A stretch of DNA of 64,000 bases from an uncultured Candidatus Actinomarina sp. (lineage in GTDB: Bacteria; Actinomycetota; Acidimicrobiia; Actinomarinales; Actinomarinaceae), in NCBI GenBank assembly GCA_902555055.1, contig CACDQN010000001.1, positions 39,820-103,819 on the forward strand. Reading direction: 5' to 3'. Positions 13,006 through 62,099 of this stretch are shown here, one piece after another. Each line of letters begins with the position of its first letter. Position 1 is the first letter of the stretch. The notes under the pieces are model-generated. The model was not told where the DNA came from and did not search any database. It saw only the letters and a list, made by a program, of their open reading frames with translations. Made by a program: the position numbers and the translations under genes.

Positions 13006-13107
13006 TTTTTATAAGTTTAAATTAACAATACTGAAATTAGTAATTAATTTCTATTTTTTAAAATTATAAAGACAATGAAGAAGGTAAAACCTGTTGTTAA
13101 AGTATTG

Positions 13108-13182
13108 TGGGCCTAGTTAGATTTGAACTAACGACCTCATCCTTATCAGGGATGCGCTCTAACCAGGCTGAGCTATAGGCCC
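13108..13182 (-). tRNA. tRNA-Ile (anticodon GAU)
   Basis: Minus strand folds as a cloverleaf: GGGCCTA/TAGGCCC acceptor, GCTC..GAGC D-arm, CATCC-CTGATAA-GGATG anticodon arm, GTTAG-TTCAAAT-CTAAC T-arm. No encoded CCA. Confidence 0.95.
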
Positions 13183-13271
13183 ATATGTCTAATTAACAAT
13201 AGTCTATTGATAGAAATATTTAAATTTTTTTTTCATTTACTCTACAATTCAAGGCATAATATTAAAAGCGA

Positions 13272-13344
13272 GGGGATGTAGCTCAGCTGGAAGAGCACCT
13301 GCTTTGCAAGCAGGGGGTCGTGGGTTCAAGTCCCATCATCTCCA
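13272..13344 (+). tRNA. tRNA-Ala (anticodon UGC)
   Basis: Cloverleaf with CCTGC-TTTGCAA-GCAGG anticodon arm and the G3:U70 alanine identity pair (GGGGATG / CATCTCC). No encoded CCA. Confidence 0.95.
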
Positions 13345-13364
13345 CAACAAGGTAATCTTATATT

Positions 13365-20760: not shown

Positions 20761-20849
20761 GGAGGGATCGCATAGTCTGGCCTAGTGCGCACGCTTGGAA
20801 AGCGTGTAAGGGTTTATCCCCTTCGAGGGTTCGAATCCCTCTCCCTCCG
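20761..20849 (+). tRNA. tRNA-Ser (anticodon GGA)
   Basis: Class II tRNA with a long variable arm. Anticodon arm CACGC-TTGGAAA-GCGTG. T-arm GAGGG-TTCGAAT-CCCTC. Acceptor GGAGGGA/TCCCTCC, discriminator G. Confidence 0.95.
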
Positions 20850-20866
20850 CAAAAAACAGACCATCT

Positions 20867-20952
20867 GGAGGGATGGCCGAGCGGACGAAGGCGATAGTCT
20901 TGAAAACTATTGTATGTATTCCATACCGTGGGTTCGAATCCCACTCCCTCCG
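20867..20952 (+). tRNA. tRNA-Ser (anticodon UGA)
   Basis: Anticodon arm ATAGT-CTTGAAA-ACTAT, long variable arm, GTGGG-TTCGAAT-CCCAC T-arm. Confidence 0.95.
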
Positions 20953-20959
20953 CTGACTT

Positions 20960-21049
20960 GGAGAGGTGACTGAGTGGCCTAAAGTGCTCGCCTGCTAAGC
21001 GAGTGGGGAAGAAATTCCCTCGAGGGTTCGAATCCCTCTCTCTCCGCCA
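20960..21049 (+). tRNA. tRNA-Ser (anticodon GCU), CCA encoded
   Basis: Anticodon arm CTCGC-CTGCTAA-GCGAG, long variable arm, acceptor GGAGAGG/TCTCTCC, then G and CCA (21047-21049). Confidence 0.95.
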
Positions 21050-21050
21050 T

Positions 21051-21124
21051 GCGCCTGTAGCTTAACTGGATAGAGCATCTGATTACGGATCAGAAGGTTG
21101 GGGGTTCGACTCCCTCCAGGCGTG
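21051..21124 (+). tRNA. tRNA-Arg (anticodon ACG)
   Basis: Anticodon arm TCTGA-TTACGGA-TCAGA. Starts 1 nt after the CCA of the preceding tRNA. Confidence 0.95.
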
Positions 21125-21130
21125 CTAGAT

Positions 21131-33896: not shown

Positions 33897-34745
33897 TTAA
33901 AGATCTCTCTCTTCATTAAGAAAATCTTCAATTTGTTGAACGAGGTTATCTTCTGAAAAATTGTCTTCTATACTTACTTCAGCTTCTTCCAATTTAGATA
34001 CATATTCGGCTAAATCTTGGGAGTTCTCCATAGCTTTATTAATCTTTAATTCAAATTGTTGTCCTTCACTTTGAATACCAGAGTCGTCAATATCAATTTT
34101 TAATATATCAGATGTTTTACTCAATAATGCTCCCATACCTTTAGGGTAACCTCCACTACTTAAGTAGTGAGGGACTGCAGCCCAAAGACCAGAAGTTTCT
34201 ATACCACTATCTCTGAGTGATTGTCCTACAACACTGGTAATGCCTGTTGGGCCAGAGTAATTTGGATTCAGTACATTGAACCTTGAATGGAAAGTGGGAT
34301 CACTACTTACTCCAAAGATTGGTACAGGAAGGGTGTGGGCTACTTGCCCAAAAAAAGCACCAAGAGTAACAGCCTTTTTTACTCCAAGCTCAAGAAGCGT
34401 TTCAGTAATATTTTTTGAATATTCTTTCCATCTCATGGAAGGCTCCTCACCAAAAACTAAAATTAAATCACTCTTTAACTTATAGTCTTCAATTGAATAA
34501 AAAGATGTTTGTGGCCAGTGAAAATTTCTCTCCCCAAAGTCTTTTACTTCTACTACAGGTCTTCTCATTTGATAGTTGTAATAAGAATCAGAATCCAACT
34601 CTGCAAAAGGTTCCACTTCATATGTACAACTTAAATTTTCTACACATCCGGTAGCAGTATTTCCAGCGTCACTCCACCCTTCAAAAGCAAGGATTGCGAC
34701 GGGCTCTGATAAAAGAGGCTTACGATACCAAACTACATCTTCCAT
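33897..34745 (-). CDS. PAC2 (proteasome assembly chaperone 2-like) family protein
   Basis: 282 aa. N-terminal LAFEGWSDAGN and acidic C-terminal tail, as in actinobacterial PAC2-family proteins. Confidence 0.75.
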   Translation of the reverse strand: MEDVVWYRKPLLSEPVAILAFEGWSDAGNTATGCVENLSCTYEVEPFAELDSDSYYNYQMRRPVVEVKDFGERNFHWPQTSFYSIEDYKLKSDLILVFGEEPSMRWKEYSKNITETLLELGVKKAVTLGAFFGQVAHTLPVPIFGVSSDPTFHSRFNVLNPNYSGPTGITSVVGQSLRDSGIETSGLWAAVPHYLSSGGYPKGMGALLSKTSDILKIDIDDSGIQSEGQQFELKINKAMENSQDLAEYVSKLEEAEVSIEDNFSEDNLVQQIEDFLNEERDL

Positions 34746-34788
34746 AATGAAAGGTTAACCCTGAATCAAATTTATTTAATATAAATTT

Positions 34789-36885
34789 TTATAGTTTTCT
34801 TGCTGAATTAAGCACTACTGAAATACTTGATAGAGCCATTGCCAAAGCAGCAAGGTTAGGAGTGATTAAACCAACTACGGCCAGTGGGATCATCAAAGTA
34901 TTGTAAATAAAAGCTAAAAATAAATTTTGATTAATCCTAAATTTTGATTTTTTTGATAAATTAAAAACTTCATTTAATGTTTCAAGACCTCCTTTGTAAA
35001 TCAGAATATCACCTGAAACTTGTGCTATTTGACTACTAGAGGATGTTGTCACACCAACGTCAGCTTGTTTTATTGCAGGAGAATCATTGATGCCATCTCC
35101 GATAAATATAACGCCACCATTGTTTTGTCTATCTTTTATAAATTGTAGTTTCTCTTCTGGATCTTTATTTGAGTAGTATTCAGCTATTCCATGTTTTTCT
35201 GCAAATCTCCTAACATTATCTTCTTTATCTCCAGATAAAATAGTGATGTTTTTTTCTTTCCTTAATTTTTCTAAAAAGTTTAAATCGATGGCTGATTCCT
35301 CTTCTAGGTTTAAAATAAATTCTTTTTCATCAATCATAATTTTTAAAGAGGGCAAGTTGCTATTTTTATTTTTTGTAATAACAATCATTTTCTCTGCAAC
35401 AAATCCTTCTATGCCAACACCTGAAGTTTCCTTAACATTCGAAGCTGGTAAAAGCTCTAAATCCCTAAGCTCAGCTTCATAAACAATACTTTTTGCTATT
35501 GGATGCTGAGAATAGTTCTCAAGACTACTTACTAACTGAAGTAAATTCTCTTCTGTAATATCTTGGTATGGATTTTCAATTTTAGTAATTTTAAAAATAC
35601 CTGAAGATAAAGTACCTGTTTTGTCAAAGACCATATTATTTATATCGCCAAATCTCTGAAGTATGTCAAAGTTCTTAAACAAAAAACCTCTCGTTTTGCT
35701 TACAGTGGCAGTTTTAAATAACACTATCGGTGTAGCTAGCCCCAGGGCACAAGGACATGCAATAACTAATATAGCTATGGTATTTCTTAAGGCATCTAAA
35801 ACTTCAGCATCTTGAAATATAAAATTATAAATAAAAGTAGAAAAGCTAATAAACAGCACAAGAGGAACAAAAAGTTGGGTTATCCTATCAAGAGACTTTT
35901 GAATTTTTGGCTTTGTTGCTTGTGCGTTACGAATTAAATCTTCAATTAGATTGTATGTAGATTGCTGATAGGACTCCACAACCTCAATCTTTAGTAGTCC
36001 TTCAAGATTAACACTACCTCCTACAACTTCTTCTCCAACATCTTTTCTGATAGGAAGAGCTTCTCCAGTAAGAAGACTTTCATCTACTGTAGATTTTCCT
36101 TCAACAATAATTCCATCAACAGGGATAATTTCTCCAGCTTTAACATCAAATAAATCTTCTTTTTGAATTTCCTTAATTGGAATATCAATTTTCTTATTAT
36201 TCCTTAATACGATAAGAGTTTTTGGCATTCTGCTTTTGATAGACTCAGATGTTTTTACAGATTCTTCAATAACCCTATCTTCAACAGATTTACCTATTAA
36301 GAGAAATGAAATTATAAAAGCACCTGTATCTAAAAACATTTTATTATCATTTATTGAAATTGAAGTTGAGGTAATTAGCTCAACTGGGATAATTGATATT
36401 ATTAGTGAACTTAAACTACCTAAGGAAATTAAAGTATCCATATTAAAATCAAGATGTCGTAATTTCTTAATTGCCGAAATATGAAAATTTCTGCCTAAAA
36501 ATAAAATAATAAAAAAACCAAGAGTGTATGCGATCAAATCGTAACCTGATTGAAAAAAGTATTTTAAGGAAGCAGCTAATAAAATTGATAATATTGGCAC
36601 ATATAAATTAAATTTATTTTTTTTATGTTCGTTCTCTTCTTGAGCCTCTCTTGCTTTATAGCCGATTTTGTTAACTGATTCGATAACTTCTTCTAACTGA
36701 AAATTACTATTTTCTATAATGTCTATTGTTGCTAATTTCAAAGGGAAGCTGACTGAGGAGTCTAGAACATCACTATTTTTAGATAAGATACGTTCGATTC
36801 TTGCTGCGCAGGCAGCACAAGTCATACCATCAATGTCTAAATTGATTGATTTAGTTTGATTCGACAACTGTATAGCCTTGTTCAT
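34789..36885 (-). CDS. copA: Copper-translocating P1B-type ATPase
   Basis: N-terminal HMA domain ([12 protein letters not shown]), TGE, CPC ([11 protein letters not shown]), [17 protein letters not shown]. Confidence 0.92.
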
Positions 36886-37060
36886 CTAACAAACTGGTTA
36901 CAACCCCCATGTCTATTGCATCAGTTGAATTAACTTCAACTAACTTCTTGTCAATATTGACAGATACATCTTGAACCGATTCGATAGTATTTATAGCTGA
37001 CTCAATTGTTTCTTTACAATGTCCACAGCTAATTTCAGGTACAGTAAATTTTGTTTCCAT
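36851..37060 (-). CDS. copZ: Copper chaperone CopZ (HMA domain)
   Basis: 69 aa. [20 protein letters not shown] carries the MxCxHC-type metal site. Overlaps the copA start by 35 nt. Confidence 0.88.
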
Positions 37061-37093
37061 ATCTTTATAATAATATTGAGTAATTTATAAAAT

Positions 37094-37114
37094 AAGCCCC
37101 TAAATTAGGGGCTT
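37094..37114 (-). terminator. GC-rich palindrome AAGCCCCTAA-A-TTAGGGGCTT: intrinsic terminator of the upstream small gene and/or operator of copZA
   Basis: On the minus strand the hairpin is followed by AUUUUAU and lies about 50 nt after the stop of the 37165-37359 gene. It also sits 34-54 nt upstream of the copZ ATG. Confidence 0.6.
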
Positions 37115-37164
37115 ATAAGAAACCTCTTGGGGGAGATTTCGATAGGGGGGGGGATGGTTAAAAC

Positions 37165-37359
37165 CTAAGCAGTTTCTTGTAGAATTCTGCCTCTTACTCT
37201 TGGGTATTTCACAGGAGCATGGTTAAAACAATGATCTCTTTTGTTATAAATACTTAATTGAGTGCTACAAGATTCATCTTTACACACTCTGCCCTGGTCA
37301 AAACTTTTAGAAGGTCTTATTCCACCTTTAATTTGACTCGCTTTTAGTCCGTCTGTCAT
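37165..37359 (-). CDS. Small Cys/His zinc-ribbon protein (64 aa), family not recognised; paralogue of 61738-61938
   Basis: MTDGLKASQIKGGIRPSKSFDQGRVCKDESCSTQLSIYNKRDHCFNHAPVKYPRVRGRILQETA. Ligand pattern C-x4-C-x12-C-x2-H. AAGGA RBS, own terminator, and more than half of the positions identical to the second copy. Confidence 0.75.
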   Translation of the reverse strand: MTDGLKASQIKGGIRPSKSFDQGRVCKDESCSTQLSIYNKRDHCFNHAPVKYPRVRGRILQETA

Positions 37360-37378
37360 TTTATTCCTTTATATACTT

Positions 37379-37394
37379 TGTGAATATATTCACA
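37379..37394. promoter_or_regulatory. Perfect CRP/FNR-family box TGTGA-ATATAT-TCACA
   Basis: Part of an 18-bp perfect palindrome TTGTGAATATATTCACAA (37378-37395), centred about 27 nt upstream of the start codon of the 37165-37359 gene. Confidence 0.45.
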
Positions 37395-37459
37395 AGCTTA
37401 ACACCTTTATTTAAGATAGCAACTTTAATTTATTAAGTTTTTTATTTTAGATACGCAGT

Positions 37460-39358
37460 TTAATTTATCAAGTTTTTTTGAAATAAAAATGCTTCATCAT
37501 TCCAATCTCTGCCTAAAAAATTCTTAACCATTGACTCTGCAGGTACAGTACCTCCCGGCTTTAATATTTTATTTTTGTACTCAACCCCAACAGAATTAGA
37601 CAGCACACCTTCATTTTCAAATCTACTAAACATATCATCACCAATAATCTCAGCCCACAAGTAACCATAGTATGCTGCATCATATCCACCAAGCAGATGT
37701 CCAAATGCTGGAAGATGATTCGTATCTTCAGGATAATTAATATTTGTAACCTCTTGTGATGTTTTTTCTATATAATTTAGAGAATTATTAAAACCCTCTC
37801 CATGTAAGTGTTGGTCAGCTAAACCAAAAGACACTTGTCGCAAGGCAAGAAGGCTAGCACCAATATTTTTTGAACTCTTTAGCTTTTCACATATATCTTC
37901 TGACAAGGGTTTACTCGTTTCAATATGTCTTGAAATTCTCTTTAAGCATTCAACTTTCCAAACCCAGTGTTCCATAATTTGACTAGGTGCCTCTACAAAA
38001 TCCCACTCACAGTTAGCACCGACAAATCTTGTATATTTTGATTTCCCTATCCCATTATGTAGGACGTGGCCAAATTCATGAAACAAAGTTTCTACTTCAT
38101 CAAATGTCATTAGCCCATCTCCTGTATTAGGATTTGGAAAATTTGCAACCATGGAGCAAACCGGCAATTCTTGCCTTACTGATCCACCTGAAGATATATC
38201 GAATACTGCTGCATGTGTGTATTTGCCCTCTCTAGGATGTAAATCTAGGTAAAAATAGGCTAACTGTTCTCCATCTTTTTGCCATAAAGACCATAGCTCT
38301 ACGTCCTCATGCCAAGCTGATTCATTTGACTCAGGTTTAATTACTAAATCAAAAACTTCTTCACACACTTTAAACATTTCATTTTTTACATCATGAATAA
38401 AAAAATATTTTTTTAGTTCGCTGTTCTCAATATTGCTGACTTTACTTCTTTCTGAGGAAATAAAATACCTAATGTCCCAAGGTGCAATATCTTTTATCTC
38501 AATATTGTCAATAACTAGCTCTTTCTTTTCCACTTCGGCAGCTTTTTGCAGTTTCGGAATTAAGTTATCATACATAGCTTCAACATTTTTTGGAGATTTA
38601 GCCATTCTGTTCTGCAGTCTGTACTCTGACCATGTATTAAATCCAAATAATTCAGCTTTCTCATTTCTTAATACAACAGCTTCTTTAAGAATTGGACTAT
38701 TTTCATTTACAGCTCTGTTGTTGAAAGCTTTCCAGGTAGTTTCTCTCGTTTTTCTTACAAGACAGTTTTCCATTACTGCATTTATATCAGGATATGACAT
38801 TGTTATAACAAACTTTTCACCACTTTTTTTTAAGTTAGTAAGTTCATTACTACTCAGCCCTCTTAGCTCATCTTCAGAAAATTGAAGCTCTGTCTTATCT
38901 TTAGCTATATTTTCTGAAAATGATATACCTAGCTGTATTAGTTTTTTATCAATTTCTAATAATCTACCTTTATTTTCATGTGTAAGACTATGGCCAGCAT
39001 CATTAAAATCTATTTCAAGATCTTTATGAAATTCAACTTCCTCAGCGTCAGAATCATCAATCTCTATTTCATTAAATTTTTTGTAAATATCTGGGTCATT
39101 AAAAATCTGCAATGCAAAATTTTGTATTTCTGAATCTGCTTCATTGCCAAATTCCCTAATCTTTTCATCCGGGTGAACATCTCCTAAAAAAGCTATTCTT
39201 CCAGAAAGATCATATACAACACTTTCTAATTCATTGAAATGACTCAAGCTGACATTTTTTGAAGATTTAATACCATCAACCAACGAATTACATTCACGAA
39301 TAGTAAGTTCCAAATCTTTTTTTAAGCTTTCTAGATTTATATTCGAATAGTTAAACAC
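37460..39358 (-). CDS. M3 family metallopeptidase (oligopeptidase A / dipeptidyl carboxypeptidase type)
   Basis: 632 aa. HEFGHVLH zinc motif, downstream EAPSQ block, typical M3 length. Confidence 0.9.
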   Translation of the reverse strand: MFNYSNINLESLKKDLELTIRECNSLVDGIKSSKNVSLSHFNELESVVYDLSGRIAFLGDVHPDEKIREFGNEADSEIQNFALQIFNDPDIYKKFNEIEIDDSDAEEVEFHKDLEIDFNDAGHSLTHENKGRLLEIDKKLIQLGISFSENIAKDKTELQFSEDELRGLSSNELTNLKKSGEKFVITMSYPDINAVMENCLVRKTRETTWKAFNNRAVNENSPILKEAVVLRNEKAELFGFNTWSEYRLQNRMAKSPKNVEAMYDNLIPKLQKAAEVEKKELVIDNIEIKDIAPWDIRYFISSERSKVSNIENSELKKYFFIHDVKNEMFKVCEEVFDLVIKPESNESAWHEDVELWSLWQKDGEQLAYFYLDLHPREGKYTHAAVFDISSGGSVRQELPVCSMVANFPNPNTGDGLMTFDEVETLFHEFGHVLHNGIGKSKYTRFVGANCEWDFVEAPSQIMEHWVWKVECLKRISRHIETSKPLSEDICEKLKSSKNIGASLLALRQVSFGLADQHLHGEGFNNSLNYIEKTSQEVTNINYPEDTNHLPAFGHLLGGYDAAYYGYLWAEIIGDDMFSRFENEGVLSNSVGVEYKNKILKPGGTVPAESMVKNFLGRDWNDEAFLFQKNLIN

Positions 39359-58177: not shown

Positions 58178-58567
58178 TTATAGGGTTCTTCTAATTGTTT
58201 TCTCAGTTTTTTTAACTATTTCATTTTTGTAGCTTTGATGAATTTCTTTCTCTTTGGTTTTAGAATCAATTTTTTGGTTTGAAATTTCATTTTCTAAAGA
58301 AACAATCTTATCCTGAAGTTCTTCAATTTTTTCTTTCATCTCATAAATTATTTTTATACCGTCTAAGTTAATTCCCCTTTGAGATAAATTTTGAATTTGA
58401 ATCAGTTTATCTATATCTTCTTGGGAATACCTTCTAGTACCCCCTCCAGTTCTGAAAGGCTTAATTAACCCTTTTTGTTCATAGGTTCTAATTGTTTGCT
58501 GGTGTATACCGGAAAGAGTAGCTGCAACAGAAATAAAATAAATTGCTTTTGAATCTTCCTTACTCAT
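58178..58567 (-). CDS. hspR: Heat-shock repressor HspR (MerR family)
   Basis: 129 aa. MerR-type HTH (YFISVAATLSGIHQQTIRTYEQKGLIKPFRTGGGTRRYS). Last gene of the dnaK-grpE-dnaJ operon, as in Actinobacteria. Confidence 0.88.
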   Translation of the reverse strand: MSKEDSKAIYFISVAATLSGIHQQTIRTYEQKGLIKPFRTGGGTRRYSQEDIDKLIQIQNLSQRGINLDGIKIIYEMKEKIEELQDKIVSLENEISNQKIDSKTKEKEIHQSYKNEIVKKTEKTIRRTL

Positions 58568-59429
58568 CTAAATACTCTCTCGGTGAGTTACCAGATTCAA
58601 ATTGGTCTCTAAATTTTTCAAGATGTTTTTTGGCTGATCTTGATAGGTTTGTTGGTGGAGTTATAAACACCTTTACATATAAATCTCCAGGTCTTCTACC
58701 TTGTGGAGAAATTCCCTCTCCTCTAATTTTAAAAGTTTTTCCGCTTGGAGTTCCTGATGGAATTTTTAATGTAACTGATTTTGTAAGTGTTGGAATTTTT
58801 ATACTGGCACCTAAAGCAGCTTCTGAAAATAATAATGGAACTTCGAGTATTAGGTCCATGTTTTTTCTTTTAAAAAACTTATGTGGCTCGACTGAAACTT
58901 GGACTAATAAATCTCCATCTGGCGCTCCAGCAGCTCCAGGGCCACCTCGACCCCTCAGTCTTATTACACTTCCATTATCTACACCTGCTGGTACCTTAAT
59001 TTTTAATGAATCACTTTCTAAAGGGAGAACAACTTCAATACCAGAAGCAGCTTCGAGAAATGATATATTGATATTAGTTTGATATGTTTGACCTTTTCTT
59101 CTTCCTCCAAAACCAAAAATATCACCTAGATTTTCAAAAATATCACCAAAATCATCAACAGTAAATCCCTGACTACTAAACCCTCCGAATCCGGATGCAC
59201 CCATTGAACGCATTTGGTCGTATTCTTGTCTTTTTCTCTCGTCTCCTATTACAGCATTAGCTTCAGAAACTTCTTTAAATTTTTTTTCTGCTTCAGGGTC
59301 TCCGGGATTAAGATCCGGGTGGTTTTCACGAGCTAGTTTTTTATATGCTTTTTTTATATCATCTGTACTCGCATTTTGGGGTACACCTAATATGGCATAG
59401 AAATTCTTATCTAGCCAGTCTCTACTCAC
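58560..59429 (-). CDS. dnaJ: J-domain co-chaperone DnaJ, class II (no Cys-rich zinc-finger domain; CbpA-like)
   Basis: J domain (YAILGV...HPD), G/F region, then directly the C-terminal substrate-binding domains. No CxxCxGxG repeats. Confidence 0.88.
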   Translation of the reverse strand: MSRDWLDKNFYAILGVPQNASTDDIKKAYKKLARENHPDLNPGDPEAEKKFKEVSEANAVIGDERKRQEYDQMRSMGASGFGGFSSQGFTVDDFGDIFENLGDIFGFGGRRKGQTYQTNINISFLEAASGIEVVLPLESDSLKIKVPAGVDNGSVIRLRGRGGPGAAGAPDGDLLVQVSVEPHKFFKRKNMDLILEVPLLFSEAALGASIKIPTLTKSVTLKIPSGTPSGKTFKIRGEGISPQGRRPGDLYVKVFITPPTNLSRSAKKHLEKFRDQFESGNSPREYLDE

Positions 59430-59913
59430 TTTTTACTTTTACCATTGATGGACGAATTAAATTACCTTGAAACATGTACCCTTTTCTTAATACAGCATCA
59501 ACCACTTGTAAATCTCCCTCGCCAGTATGCTCAACAGCTTCATGAATAGATGGGTCAAAACTTTCTCCCACGGTTCCCACTTCTTCTAATTGTAAATTTT
59601 CCAGTATTGACTGAAGAAGGCTATTAAAAGCTTCCGTCTCTTTACTAATTTCATCTTGTGACATAGCCATTTCAAAATTGTCAATTAGTGGAAAAAGGGC
59701 ATTAATAAAATATGCTAAAGTGACAGAACTTATATTTTCTTTCTCTTTTTCAGCCCTTTTTTTATAATTGTCAAAGTCTGCAGCTAGCCTAAGGTGGTCG
59801 TCCTTAATTTTTTCATATTGAGAAAGAGGAACACTAGGTTCTTCAGGTGTTTCTTCGACCCCTTCTGTTGAATCACTATCTACTTCCTCAACAGGGAGTT
59901 CTTCTTTACTCAT
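59422..59913 (-). CDS. grpE: Nucleotide exchange factor GrpE
   Basis: 163 aa. [12 protein letters not shown] and C-terminal beta-domain motifs. Confidence 0.92.
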
Positions 59914-61714
59914 CCTCTACAACTTCACCTTCGACTACATCATCTGACTCATCTGAAGATGGGTTAGGAGAGTCATTTTGAGTCTCTGCATATAATTTTT
60001 CTGCAAATGATTGACTAGCTTTTGAAAGATCTTCAATACAAACTTTAAGGTCATTTATAGCTACATCATCACCTTCTAGTAATTTTTTTAACTTATCATT
60101 AGCCTCTGTGATTGCGGTTACTTCCTCTTCGCTTGCCTTATCTTTATTGTCTTCAAGCATTTTTTCTGTTGAAGTTACCATTCCCTCAGCCATATTTCTT
60201 GTTTCAATAAGCTCTTTCTTTTTAGCATCTTCATTAGCATGTTGTTCTGCATCTTTTATCATCCTGTCAATTTCATCATCTTCGAGAGCAGTACCTCCAG
60301 TAATTGTGATTGCTTGCTCTTTACCTGTTCCAAGATCTTTAGCATTAACATTTACAATTCCATTAGCGTCAATATCAAAGGTAACCTCTATTTGGGGCGT
60401 TCCAGCCATTGCAGCTGGTATATCTGTTAATGTAAATCTACCTAAAGACTTATTACCGGATGCCATGTCTCTTTCGCCTTGAAGAATATGAATTTCAACT
60501 TGAGTTTGGTTATTTTCAGCAGTACTAAATACTTCTGACCTTTTAGTCGGTATTGTAGTATTTCGCTCTATCATTTTTGTCATGATGCCACCCTTAGTCT
60601 CTACTCCTAAAGTAAGAGGAGTCACATCTAAAAGTAATACATCTTTCACATCACCTTTTAAAACTCCAGCTTGAATAGCAGCACCTGAAGCCACAACTTC
60701 GTCAGGATTAACACCTTTATGAGGGTCTTTACCTGTTAATGTTTTTACAAGTTCCTGAACAGCAGGCATTCGGGTTGAGCCACCAACTAAAATAATGTGA
60801 TCTATTTCTGAAAATTTCATACCAGCATCAGATAGAGCTTTTTCTACTGGTTCTTTAGTACGCTCAACTAAATCTGCAGTAATCTTTTCAAATTCTGATC
60901 TACTAAGTTTTTCAAGTAAATGCTGAGGGCCTGCATCATTAGCAGTAATAAATGGTAAATTTATTTCAGTTTCACTTGTTGAAGATAATTCAATTTTTGC
61001 CTTTTCAGCACCTTCTTGGACTCTCTGAATGGCCATTTTGTCTTTTGAAAGATCTATTCCGGTTGATGATTTGAATTTTTCAATTAACCAATCGATGACT
61101 CTTTGATCCCAATCATCTCCACCTAATTTAGAATCACCAGAAGTTGATTTTACTTCAAACACACCTTCAGAAATTTCTAATACTGAGACGTCAAATGTAC
61201 CTCCACCAAGATCGAAAACAAGTATCTTCTGATCTTCACTATTTTCAAGGCCATATGCTAGTGAGGCTGCAGTTGGCTCGTTTATTATTCTTAAAACATT
61301 TAATCCGGCAATTTGTCCAGCTTCTTTTGTTGCTTGTCTTTCTGCATCGTTGAAATAAGCAGGTACAGTAATAACAGCTTCAGTTACATCATCTCCTAAA
61401 TATGATTCAGCATCTCTTTTAAGCTTTTGGAGTATTCGTGCTGAAATTTCTTGTGGGGTATATTCTTTGCCTTCGAAAGTTTCTTTCCAGTTTGTTCCAA
61501 CCTGTCTCTTAATTGATCTAACGGTATTATCAGGATTTGTTATTGCTTGTCTTTTTGCTAACTCTCCAACTAGAACTTCTTCAGATTTAAACGCAACGAT
61601 AGATGGAGTAGTGCGGTTACCTTCGGCATTAGCTATTACAGATGGCTCACCACCTTCTAGTACTGCTACAACACTGTTTGTAGTCCCTAAGTCTATTCCA
61701 ACGGCTTTTCCCAT
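59906..61714 (-). CDS. dnaK: Chaperone DnaK (Hsp70)
   Basis: 602 aa. [25 protein letters not shown], acidic C-terminus. Confidence 0.98.
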
Positions 61715-61737: not shown

Positions 61738-61938
61738 TTAATTAATTTCTTGCTCTCTAGGTAGGTGACCACGTACTCTTGGATAGGAGACTGGTGCATG
61801 AAGAAAGCAAAATTTCTTTTTGTTATACATGCTTATTACAGTTTCACAAGATTCAAATTCACAGACACGACCAGAAGTGTATTTTTTTGACCTTCTAATA
61901 CCTGGTTTAACTTGTGATGCAGTTAATGTTCCACTCAT
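61738..61938 (-). CDS. Small Cys/His zinc-ribbon protein (66 aa), paralogue of 37165-37359; first gene of the dnaK operon
   Basis: MSGTLTASQVKPGIRRSKKYTSGRVCEFESCETVISMYNKKKFCFLHAPVSYPRVRGHLPREQEIN. Same C-x4-C-x12-C-x2-H spacing. AGGAG RBS. Only 23 nt separate its stop from the dnaK start. Confidence 0.75.
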   Translation of the reverse strand: MSGTLTASQVKPGIRRSKKYTSGRVCEFESCETVISMYNKKKFCFLHAPVSYPRVRGHLPREQEIN

Positions 61939-61970
61939 TTTTTCTCCTAATCTATATAATAAATTATATA

Positions 61971-61996
61971 AAATCTAAGTAAATATACTTAGATTT
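61971..61996. promoter_or_regulatory. HAIR-like inverted repeat AAATCTAAGT-AAATAT-ACTTAGATTT, candidate HspR operator
   Basis: Perfect 10-bp arms (11 if the first spacer pair is counted). On the minus strand it is followed immediately by TATATAAT, then AGGAG and the ATG of the 61738-61938 gene. It resembles but does not equal CTTGAGT-N7-ACTCAAG. Confidence 0.45.
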
Positions 61997-62099
61997 AATT
62001 AAAAATATATCATATATCAGAATTTATGCAAAACATTTTCAAATAAATTTTAAATTTTCAAAAATTAGTAACTTATCACCCACCTGATAGTATTAAATA

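Follow-up and report, generated by a model that had tools for sequence, protein, structure and literature searches.

We analysed a window of 64,000 nucleotides (nt) from an uncultured Candidatus (Ca.) Actinomarina sp. of the class Acidimicrobiia (contig CACDQN010000001.1, positions 39,820 to 103,819), which carries two related genes for small basic proteins with one predicted zinc site of three cysteines and one histidine (Cys3His). Copy 1 encodes 64 amino acids (aa) and lies between an M3-family oligopeptidase gene and the copper genes copZ-copA, while copy 2 encodes 66 aa and is the first gene of the dnaK operon (Table 1). A first-pass annotation, made from the sequence of the window, had described the two open reading frames (ORFs) as sharing more than half of their residues and the same ligand spacing. 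BLASTP confirmed this with a gapless alignment of 36 identities in 62 positions (58%; E 9e-27), and the spacing C26-x4-C31-x12-C44-x2-H47 is the same in both. The codon-level motif pattern has 2 sites in the window, which are the two copies, and 0 in 100 shuffles. Shine-Dalgarno sequences stand ahead of both ORFs, and both proteins have an isoelectric point of about 9.7; the net charge is +6 to +9.

Table 1. Features around the two zinc protein genes (positions within the window)
Feature	Position	Strand	Basis or remark
Copy 1, Cys3His zinc protein, class II paralogue	37165..37359	-	ORF; M3 peptidase followed by this gene in relatives
Perfect 18-bp palindrome TTGTGAATATATTCACAA (TGTGA-N6-TCACA, Crp/GlxR-like)	37378..37395	.	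directly after the -10
Predicted copy 1 promoter: -35 TTGCTA (37417-37422), 16-nt spacer, -10 TAAGCT (37395-37400)	37395..37422	-	
Probable intrinsic terminator: 11-bp G+C-rich stem (37092-37116), then AUUUUAU	37081..37116	-	gap between copy 1 and copZ
M3-family oligopeptidase, upstream neighbour of copy 1	37460..39358	-	Pfam Peptidase_M3, 5.6e-113
copZ (36851-37060), copA (34789-36885), PAC2-family protein (~33900-34745)	33900..37060	-	Pfam HMA, PAC2
Copy 2, Cys3His zinc protein, first cistron of the dnaK operon	61738..61938	-	ORF and homology
Shine-Dalgarno AGGAG, 5 nt 5' of the copy 2 ATG	61944..61948	-	read from sequence
Inverted repeat AAATCTAAGT-N6-ACTTAGATTT, HAIR-like putative HspR operator	61971..61996	.	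overlaps the predicted transcription start
Sigma-70-type promoter TTTGCA-17-TATATT with TG extension, for copy 2 and dnaK	62004..62032	-	promoter scan
dnaK operon genes after copy 2	58178..61714	-	Pfam, NCBIfam HspR, ORFs
dnaK	59906-61714	-	
grpE	59422-59913	-	
dnaJ	58560-59429	-	
hspR	58178-58567	-	

Compared with their Ca. Actinomarina orthologues, the two copies have a ratio of nonsynonymous to synonymous substitution (dN/dS) of 0.00-0.05 at dS 0.6-2.2 (0.04-0.05 for copy 2). The copy 1 protein is 100% identical in three genomes (L027, L035 and L120) at dS of about 0.9, with synonymous sites near saturation, and in the same genomes CopA is just 48-71% and the M3 peptidase 68-90% identical. 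Proteins identical or nearly identical to those of the window are found in single-amplified genomes and metagenome genomes named Ca. Actinomarina; the G+C content of the window is 32-35%. By their low dN/dS and their identity across genomes, the two ORFs are real genes, and purifying selection on them is very strong. It had been argued that the retention of two copies speaks for function, which these values bear out, and the possibility that the ORFs are unconserved in relatives, raised at the same time, does not hold.

Identity at this level in copy 1, together with a basic, predicted zinc-binding protein of about 65 aa, is also what a ribosome-associated stress factor would give, which binds rRNA or the ribosome and is either derived from ribosomal protein uS14 or merely works like a small zinc ribosomal protein. 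We consider this quite improbable: neither copy is located in a ribosomal-protein operon, and the expression signals described below are of the ECF (extracytoplasmic function) or HspR stress type, not of the type of growth-rate genes.

Both proteins appear to belong to an undescribed family of predicted zinc-binding basic proteins in Acidimicrobiia and their phages. Members are strongly basic, have about 60-70 residues and one Cys3His site each, and share the core motif R-x-C-x4-C-x-T-x-[LI]-S-x-Y-N-x4-C-x2-H between a basic N-terminal arm and a P-R-x-R-G tail. In 39 diverse members, R24, C26, C31, Y38, N39, C44, H47, R56 and G57 are invariant, and S36 and R54 nearly so. HMMER, run exhaustively with a profile built from 10 sequences, found at least 835 representatives of clusters at 50% identity with E <= 1e-3, almost all of 55-120 aa, and 82 with E <= 1e-10; nearly all the clusters come from metagenome-assembled genomes (MAGs) labelled Acidimicrobiia or Actinomycetota. 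With a 39-sequence profile, a word-indexed search gave 314 clusters, in which every source name is "hypothetical protein" from MAGs of Acidimicrobiia or Actinomycetia; a single marine cluster of the family holds 588 member sequences.

The first-pass annotation did not recognise the family, and our searches agree with it. Neither window protein matches Pfam-A or NCBIfam at E <= 10, a single-protein search of PDB sequences gave just one chance match (E 1.8), and a full-text literature search did not find a description of the family. The AlphaFold2 model (mean pLDDT confidence 82.9; 94 over residues 21-40) has hardly any regular secondary structure, which is how a small metal-knuckle module should look. 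Foldseek returned 0 PDB matches for this model, and its matches in BFVD were non-significant ones to uncharacterised phage proteins, so that Pfam, PDB and Foldseek gave no confident match to a characterised family.

To survey relatives, one genome per GTDB species was scanned with a degenerate codon pattern; 120 loci were listed, which means at least 120 in all, and all of them (120 of 120) translate to true family members. Their record titles name Acidimicrobiia, Acidimicrobiales, Ca. Actinomarina, Ca. Microthrix and unclassified Actinomycetota. Several paralogues per genome occur elsewhere too, for example L037 and L104 on one 492-kb contig. Six loci (L031, L047, L051, L068, L108, L118) have a typical Acidimicrobiia gene with typical neighbours in MAGs labelled Acidobacteriota, Methanobacteriota archaeon or Kiloniellales, which are probably binning or labelling errors. 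The range of the family may reach Thermoleophilia, because L098, labelled Solirubrobacterales, has sigH and rsrA followed by a zinc protein gene. Besides, in P0027, an 88-aa protein from an ENA metagenome, the N-terminal part of ribosomal protein S17 (PF00366) runs into the family core at (I/V)RRSKKY, a peptide common to both; most likely this chimera arose in assembly through a shared k-mer and is no real fusion.

We clustered the flanking ORFs, named the clusters by NCBIfam and Pfam, and summarized the 120 matches listed in three contexts. Class I is the largest (42 of 120, plus 16 with the downstream part only, called class I*). Its gene order is a SigH-type ECF sigma factor (TIGR02947, SigH_actino, 244 bits), an RsrA-type anti-sigma factor (TIGR03988, antisig_RsrA, 76.5 bits with cut-off 62.5), the zinc protein, a DUF2342 metalloprotease, tilS, hpt, ftsH and folE. 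Wherever rsrA is cleanly called, 18-90 nt separate its stop from the start of the zinc protein gene, which is thus the third gene of a sigH-rsrA unit. Class II (34 of 120, window copy 1 included) has the order M3 oligopeptidase, zinc protein, optional cop cassette and PAC2-family protein; by tblastn, synteny with the M3 peptidase is found in 28-35 of the loci listed. In class III (5 of 120, plus window copy 2) the gene lies directly 5' of dnaK-grpE-dnaJ-hspR, and among the matches listed this class is confined to Actinomarinales. The other 23 have other contexts. In the window itself, tblastn found no genes for an ECF sigma factor, RsrA, DUF2342, TilS, CsoR or RbpA. Whether a copy is always upstream of dnaK or copZ had been posed as a question: this is the case in some genomes, while the largest class is linked to sigH-rsrA. 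Overall, the context points to stress, not metal.

These neighbours bring in another explanation, in which the protein is a cofactor of proteostasis, that is, a redox-sensitive zinc holdase, a co-chaperone, or an adaptor or regulator of the adjacent peptidases and DnaK, by the logic of Hsp33 or the zinc finger of DnaJ. In 49 loci listed, the DUF2342 zinc metalloprotease and then tilS-hpt-ftsH follow downstream, with gaps down to 18-50 nt; class II has the M3 oligopeptidase upstream and PAC2 downstream, and Actinomarina has DnaK. We regard this explanation as doubtful, though a serious possibility. The protein is small and highly basic with few exposed hydrophobic residues, its invariant Arg, Tyr, Asn and Arg-Gly are of the nucleic-acid-binding type, and no similarity to Hsp33 or to the CXXCXGXG repeats of DnaJ was found.

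The position of copy 1 in the window gives rise to a third explanation, a role in metal handling. Directly upstream of copZ-copA, as the first-pass annotation stated, copy 1 was taken to be attached to a metal operon; the position is right, and the operon membership does not hold. The end of copy 1 and copZ-copA are 104 nt apart, and a hairpin with a U tract lies inside this gap. The terminator region (37075-37168, minus strand) folds at -26.4 kcal/mol (z -5.0), and 0 of 200 shuffles are as stable, while a consensus terminator scan of the window did not list this hairpin. Between the stop codon of copy 1 and the hairpin there is a C-rich tract, CCATCCCCCCCCCTATCGAAATCTCCCCC (37125-37160, minus strand), with nine consecutive C, which is very unusual for a genome of 33% G+C. 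With its own predicted promoter and a terminator ahead of copZ, copy 1 is most likely monocistronic. By our reading of the alignment, the promoter (TTGC..-15/17-TA..CT) is kept in six relatives (L024, L027, L035, L047, L079, L120); a consensus promoter scan instead picked TTGATA-16-TAAAAT at 37471..37444.

The palindrome TTGTGAATATATTCACAA behind the -10 element is unique in the window and identical in seven Actinomarinales genomes with diverged flanks. Its core TGTGA-N6-TCACA is presumably a Crp/GlxR-type site; no Crp/GlxR gene was found in the window by tblastn. As an RNA hairpin the palindrome is weak (-6.4 kcal/mol, z -1.5). It may be either an operator or a 5'-terminal RNA hairpin.

Across relatives, the constant neighbour of class II genes is the M3 peptidase and the cop genes vary. 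Two loci (L045 and L054) have no cop genes, with PAC2 straight after the zinc protein gene; where a large gap separates the gene from copZ, a CsoR/RicR-like or CueR-like regulator is found inside; and in five loci (L086, L088, L112, L119 and also L010) the zinc protein gene is alone on its strand within the cluster. Between the zinc protein gene and PAC2, the cop genes form a cassette that varies from locus to locus, and members of the family are not copper-operon genes. A zinc or copper sensor, metallochaperone or metalloregulator serving copZ-copA or the neighbouring zinc metallopeptidases would account for the copZ-copA adjacency in the window and in about 23-28 of the 120 matches listed, for the few loci where the gene is divergent from the cop genes like a regulator (L086, L119), and for HExxH-type zinc peptidases as neighbours in both main classes; Cys3His sites can bind Cu(I) or Zn. 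Against it, besides the terminator and the loci without cop genes, many cop cassettes have a regulator of their own, there are no metal genes near the sigH-rsrA class or the dnaK copy, and no TRASH/YHS, HMA, CsoR or MerR model matches the family. This explanation fits the cop adjacency only, and we regard it as very improbable and the weakest of the rivals.

Copy 2 is the promoter-proximal gene of the order copy 2-dnaK-grpE-dnaJ-hspR, as had been described before, with 23 nt between its end and dnaK. The last gene of the operon reaches 112 bits with the NCBIfam HspR model, whose cut-off is 105. The same -35/-10 layout of the copy 2 promoter is kept in five relatives, and an inverted repeat begins about 10 nt past it. 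Its arms ATCTAAGT and ACTTAGAT (61974-61993) are kept in six Actinomarinales genomes, with a variable 6-nt spacer, and the window has no other exact and no second good copy of ATCTAAGT-N6-ACTTAGAT. We read this repeat as a diverged putative operator of HspR, of the kind called HAIR, which would make copy 2 the first product of a heat-shock operon.

The origin of copy 2 can be traced by its relatives. Orthologues with 86-91% identity lie directly 5' of dnaK in L013, L015, L028, L044 and L071. The nearest non-orthologue is the Actinomarina class II copy (60%), and the mean identity to sigH-linked class I members is 38%; copy 2 is therefore best read as an Actinomarinales-specific duplicate of the class II gene, which is linked to the M3 peptidase. 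A relocated class I orthologue is ruled out by the same comparison. In Actinomarina, the ancestral copy would thus have stayed after the M3 peptidase and the duplicate become the first cistron of the dnaK operon, and, judged by their predicted signals, the two paralogues are separately regulated.

The DnaJ of this operon (289 aa) has Pfam DnaJ and DnaJ_C domains and no matched zinc-finger (CXXCXGXG) domain, so the J-protein appears to lack the zinc module that is usual for it, and the first gene of the same operon encodes a separate zinc protein. This arrangement is one more point for a cofactor of proteostasis.

In relatives we searched for the motif GGAAC-N16-18-CGT[CT] on the coding strand within 320 nt 5' of the start codon. 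It is present in 48 of the 120 matches listed, against about 1.2 expected from the background (50 matches in the remaining 1.66 Mb of the same loci, or 0.0097 per 320 nt). By class, it turned out to stand ahead of 19 of 34 genes in class II, 18 of 42 in class I, 8 of 16 in class I*, 3 of 23 in other contexts and 0 of 5 in class III; none was found ahead of the two window copies or in Actinomarina class II loci. The class II motif is located at about -64 (GGGAACAA-N16-CGTTGA) or about -180 (GGGAACC-N17-CGTCT). In at least nine class II loci, the stop codon of the M3 peptidase lies about 30-250 nt before the -35 element, which places the motif in intergenic DNA there; the spacers all differ. In Corynebacterium glutamicum, GGAAC-N17-18-cGTT (also GGAACA-N16-CGTT) is the experimental consensus of sigma-H and sigma-E, whose promoters include those of dnaK, dnaJ2, clgR and sigB; the actinobacterial sigma-H/E promoter is also given as GGAA(T/C)-N17-19-GTT (PMC10012870).

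A promoter motif of the sigma-H/E regulon is thus found upstream of the family gene in relatives, and regulon membership of this kind is typical of chaperones (PMC10012870), which suits a proteostasis cofactor too. Judged by gene order and predicted promoters, the family appears to be wired into the thiol- and heat-stress circuit of ECF sigma-H/E and RsrA in most lineages. The attachment to stress operons that had been proposed from the dnaK copy is strengthened by the sigH-rsrA operons and by these promoters.

Several other leader signals were noticed in the relatives. Ahead of sigH itself, a sigma-R-type autoregulatory promoter (GGAAT-N18-GTT) was looked for and found in just 3 of 36 loci. 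In many Acidimicrobiia a TAGGGT-like -10 element lies only 7-10 nt before the ATG or GTG of sigH (for example L016, L022, L057, L072, L078, L085, L100 and L103), which suggests that the sigH mRNAs are leaderless in many Acidimicrobiia. A tRNA gene is often located just 5' of class I sigH. High-G+C class II genes have leaders of about 150 nt, in which GGCCC and GGGCC flank 7-13 nt including AGGAG around the Shine-Dalgarno sequence, about 10-35 nt before the start (L007, L009, L031, L067, L068, L081, L090, L093, L099, L110, L114, L118), and more inverted repeats such as CGCAC-N4-8-GTGCG. A single such Shine-Dalgarno stem folds no better than shuffles (z -1.0). These leaders could serve translational control, such as an RNA thermometer or autoregulation; long leaders with GGCCC...GGGCC stems recall autoregulated ribosomal-protein mRNAs, which counts for the ribosome-associated alternative.

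Phages carry the family as well. The same codon pattern found 58 IMG/VR contigs, all of which encode family members of about 58-70 aa, in several unrelated gene orders. For example, the zinc protein gene lies between DnaB helicase and an unknown gene followed by primase, between genes for an SLT-domain and a SET-domain protein, or next to a metallophosphatase gene. Long forms of 103-148 aa (L121-L124, L132, P0058, P0100, P0105, P0141, P0143, P0151, P0152, P0155, P0183) carry an extra C-x2-C...H...C cluster. Four of them are on phage or phage-like contigs; P0100, P0141 and the long form on viral contig L132 each lie directly 5' of a Mu-type portal gene. Their site order, Cys3His and then Cys2HisCys, is that of the two sites of the plant SBP domain.

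PHROGs gave weak matches only, to phrog_10853 (function unknown). In a cultured-phage database, a marine phage member found no match, and a high-GC member weak matches in Streptomyces phages only. One of these phages, BillNye, encodes gp164 (L183 2348-2629; 93 aa) between a RecB-like exonuclease and RuvC. It contains RVC-x4-C-x-T-x-LS-x-YN-x4-C-x2-C, and C-x4-C-x12-C occurs twice in it: the first unit has a weak zf-CGNR match, and the second (RVCATSGCDTRLSRYNDGKVCQKC) comes close to the family core, with Cys for His. Marine phages also carry small ribosomal proteins such as bS21, which can be counted for a ribosome-associated factor. The cofactor of proteostasis is weakened here, as phage copies lie within replication or recombination modules and not with chaperones.

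Taken together, we favour, at somewhat less than an even chance, a zinc-thiolate protein that binds nucleic acid or RNA polymerase and acts as an accessory stress transcription factor of the sigma-H/E-RsrA and HspR-DnaK circuits. Heat or thiol stress, through damage to proteins or thiols, would induce the protein, and its zinc-thiolate module would hold the two basic arms in the shape that binds the partner. The partner would be conserved and contain nucleic acid, most likely DNA or RNA polymerase at promoters, where the protein would then work as the accessory factor. If its thiolates were oxidized, the protein could lose zinc and thereby be switched, and phages might carry copies to manipulate the same host target. 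We infer binding to DNA or RNA polymerase because of the charge, the type of the invariant surface residues (Arg, Tyr and Asn), the known or putative DNA-binding function of the nearest known motifs, the replication and recombination neighbours in phages and the RbpA-like N-terminus described below.

A bolder form, which we think unlikely, is a class-specific general stress transcription factor docking on RNA polymerase. Its RbpA-like N-terminal arm would insert into the enzyme, the P-R-x-R-G tail would contact promoter DNA, and the oxidation of thiols would be sensed by loss of zinc. In Acidimicrobiia the factor would fill the niche that RbpA and WhiB-type factors have in other Actinobacteria, and marine and soil phages would have copied it several times to redirect host transcription.

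Several points weigh against the favoured stress transcription factor. All promoters and operators were predicted in silico. In one related group, the class I matches of the ECF motif are found within the rsrA 3' end and may be conserved there for coding reasons, and the HAIR-like repeat of copy 2 departs from the canonical CTTGAGT-N7-ACTCAAG in sequence and spacing. Neither sequence searches nor Foldseek gave significant similarity to proteins of known function. All three contexts have proteostasis neighbours (DUF2342 metalloprotease, M3 peptidase, DnaK), so that a protein-directed role fits as well as a transcriptional one, and conservation at the level of ribosomal proteins would equally suit a partner in the ribosome.

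Acidimicrobiia are abundant and have hardly been cultured; among them, Ca. Actinomarina is one of the smallest free-living cells of the sea. What is known of stress regulation in the class comes only from analogy with Streptomyces and Mycobacterium. The family is among the most conserved proteins at these loci, two copies of it are kept in a genome of about 1 Mb, and it lies inside two master stress circuits (sigma-H/RsrA and HspR/DnaK) and in several phage lineages, yet it has neither a name nor a model nor a literature, and annotation pipelines at present miss or mislabel its genes. Once its partner is defined, the actinobacterial response to thiol and heat stress would gain a component, and there would be a clean case in which to test a minimal Cys3His switch that works by redox state or zinc.

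Apart from these genes, the tRNA-Ile(GAT) and tRNA-Ala(TGC) genes, usually a pair in the rRNA spacer, are divergent on opposite strands at 13107-13345 of the window, in which Rfam found no rRNA. Three tRNA-Ser genes and a tRNA-Arg gene are tightly clustered at 20761-21125.

To place the family among known systems, we began with type-Z uS14, to which the first-pass annotation had likened it. The likeness is real in the x12 spacing between the second and third ligands and in S-V-Y, which stands at the same offset as S-[IV]-Y in the family. Besides, uS14 type Z has about 61 aa, is basic and has one zinc site, and its P-G-V-[RQ]-K tail resembles P-R-V-R-G. These offsets count for a ribosome-associated factor derived from uS14. 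However, uS14 has two knuckles, C-x2-C and C-x2-C, instead of C-x4-C ... C-x2-H, it ends in ...LPGV.K.SW where the family has P-R-x-R-G and a variable tail, and its gene is located in the spc operon, while family genes are never in a ribosomal context. Three uS14 sequences checked against PDB were aligned and compared by hhalign with the 39-member family alignment, which gave a probability of 0.12% (P 0.48) over 16 columns. PF00253 has no match at E <= 10 in the two window proteins, the 39 aligned members or 10 further members, BLASTP against uS14 found nothing, and the window has no uS14 gene. The suggested kinship therefore fails.

The nearest known pattern is that of the first zinc site (Zn1) of the plant SBP domain, which is DNA-binding, and of the EsV-1-7 repeat (PF19114), with C-x4-C ... 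[LM]-[ST] ... Y ... C-x2-H-[AS]. The best PDB profile matches, with non-significant values, are to Zn1 of SPL5 (E 0.6) and to a CHORD domain (E 1.3). Against five PDB-verified SBP sequences, hhalign aligned the four ligands with one 4-residue gap (probability 8.7%, P 0.004). Sub-threshold matches to EsV_1_7_cys (17.7 bits, cut-off 25) and CxC6 (PF18721; 17.4 bits, cut-off 27.5) recur in several independent members, and PF03110 (SBP) has no match. The middle spacing is x16 in SBP Zn1 and EsV-1-7 and x12 in the family, the second SBP site (Zn2; C-x2-C-x3-H-x11-C) is missing from cellular members, and the hosts are plants, algae and large DNA viruses, unlike the bacteria and phages of the family. 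With scores below every family threshold, another spacing and other hosts, homology is unproven, and we take the resemblance as a candidate pattern only.

RbpA, which binds RNA polymerase in Actinomycetia, is another small actinobacterial protein, and its gene belongs to the sigma-R targets. The Streptomyces protein combines a C(H/C)CC zinc site with a basic, flexible tail at the N-terminus (PMC3675491). Its residues 1-11 match M-[AS]-[DE]-x-x-L-[KR]-G-x-R-[LI]-x-G of many family members, and an N-terminal profile run against 177,635 PDB sequences has RbpA in the top 12 (E 0.4-0.8), while a phosphoserine aminotransferase motif scores better. With such values the resemblance may serve as an analogy and a lead only, not as membership. 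The ligand order of RbpA (C-x3-H-x17-C-x2-C) is unlike that of the family, which is without the sigma-interaction helix and beta-barrel core of RbpA, and neither a whole-protein hhalign alignment nor a match to Pfam PF13397 was obtained.

WhiB-like (Wbl) proteins are redox- and stress-linked, and whiB1/whcE lie near sigH in Corynebacterium and Mycobacterium. Like the family, they are small, actinobacteria-specific proteins with a Cys-bound metal and several paralogues per genome, and they are carried by actinophages (PMC4255298). However, C-x(n)-C-x2-C-x5-C binds a [4Fe-4S] cluster in Wbl proteins, which also contain a G[VI]WGG turn, and the family has neither feature; Pfam Whib (PF02467) has no match in the aligned or further members, and the four-Cys pattern is absent from the 39-member alignment.

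Two more groups were tried and rejected. The zinc-containing anti-sigma (ZAS) factors RsrA/RshA have an H-x3-C-x2-C motif, which is missing here, and no NCBIfam or Pfam match supports membership; it is the upstream neighbour that matches TIGR03988. The TRASH/YHS/zf-FCS pattern is C-x19-22-C-x3-C with [FY]-C-S-x2-C, where the family has [FY]-C-x2-H, and none of these models matches at E <= 10. In conclusion, these proteins make up a new family, with a regulatory position that is unusually informative, among the small zinc-finger stress factors.

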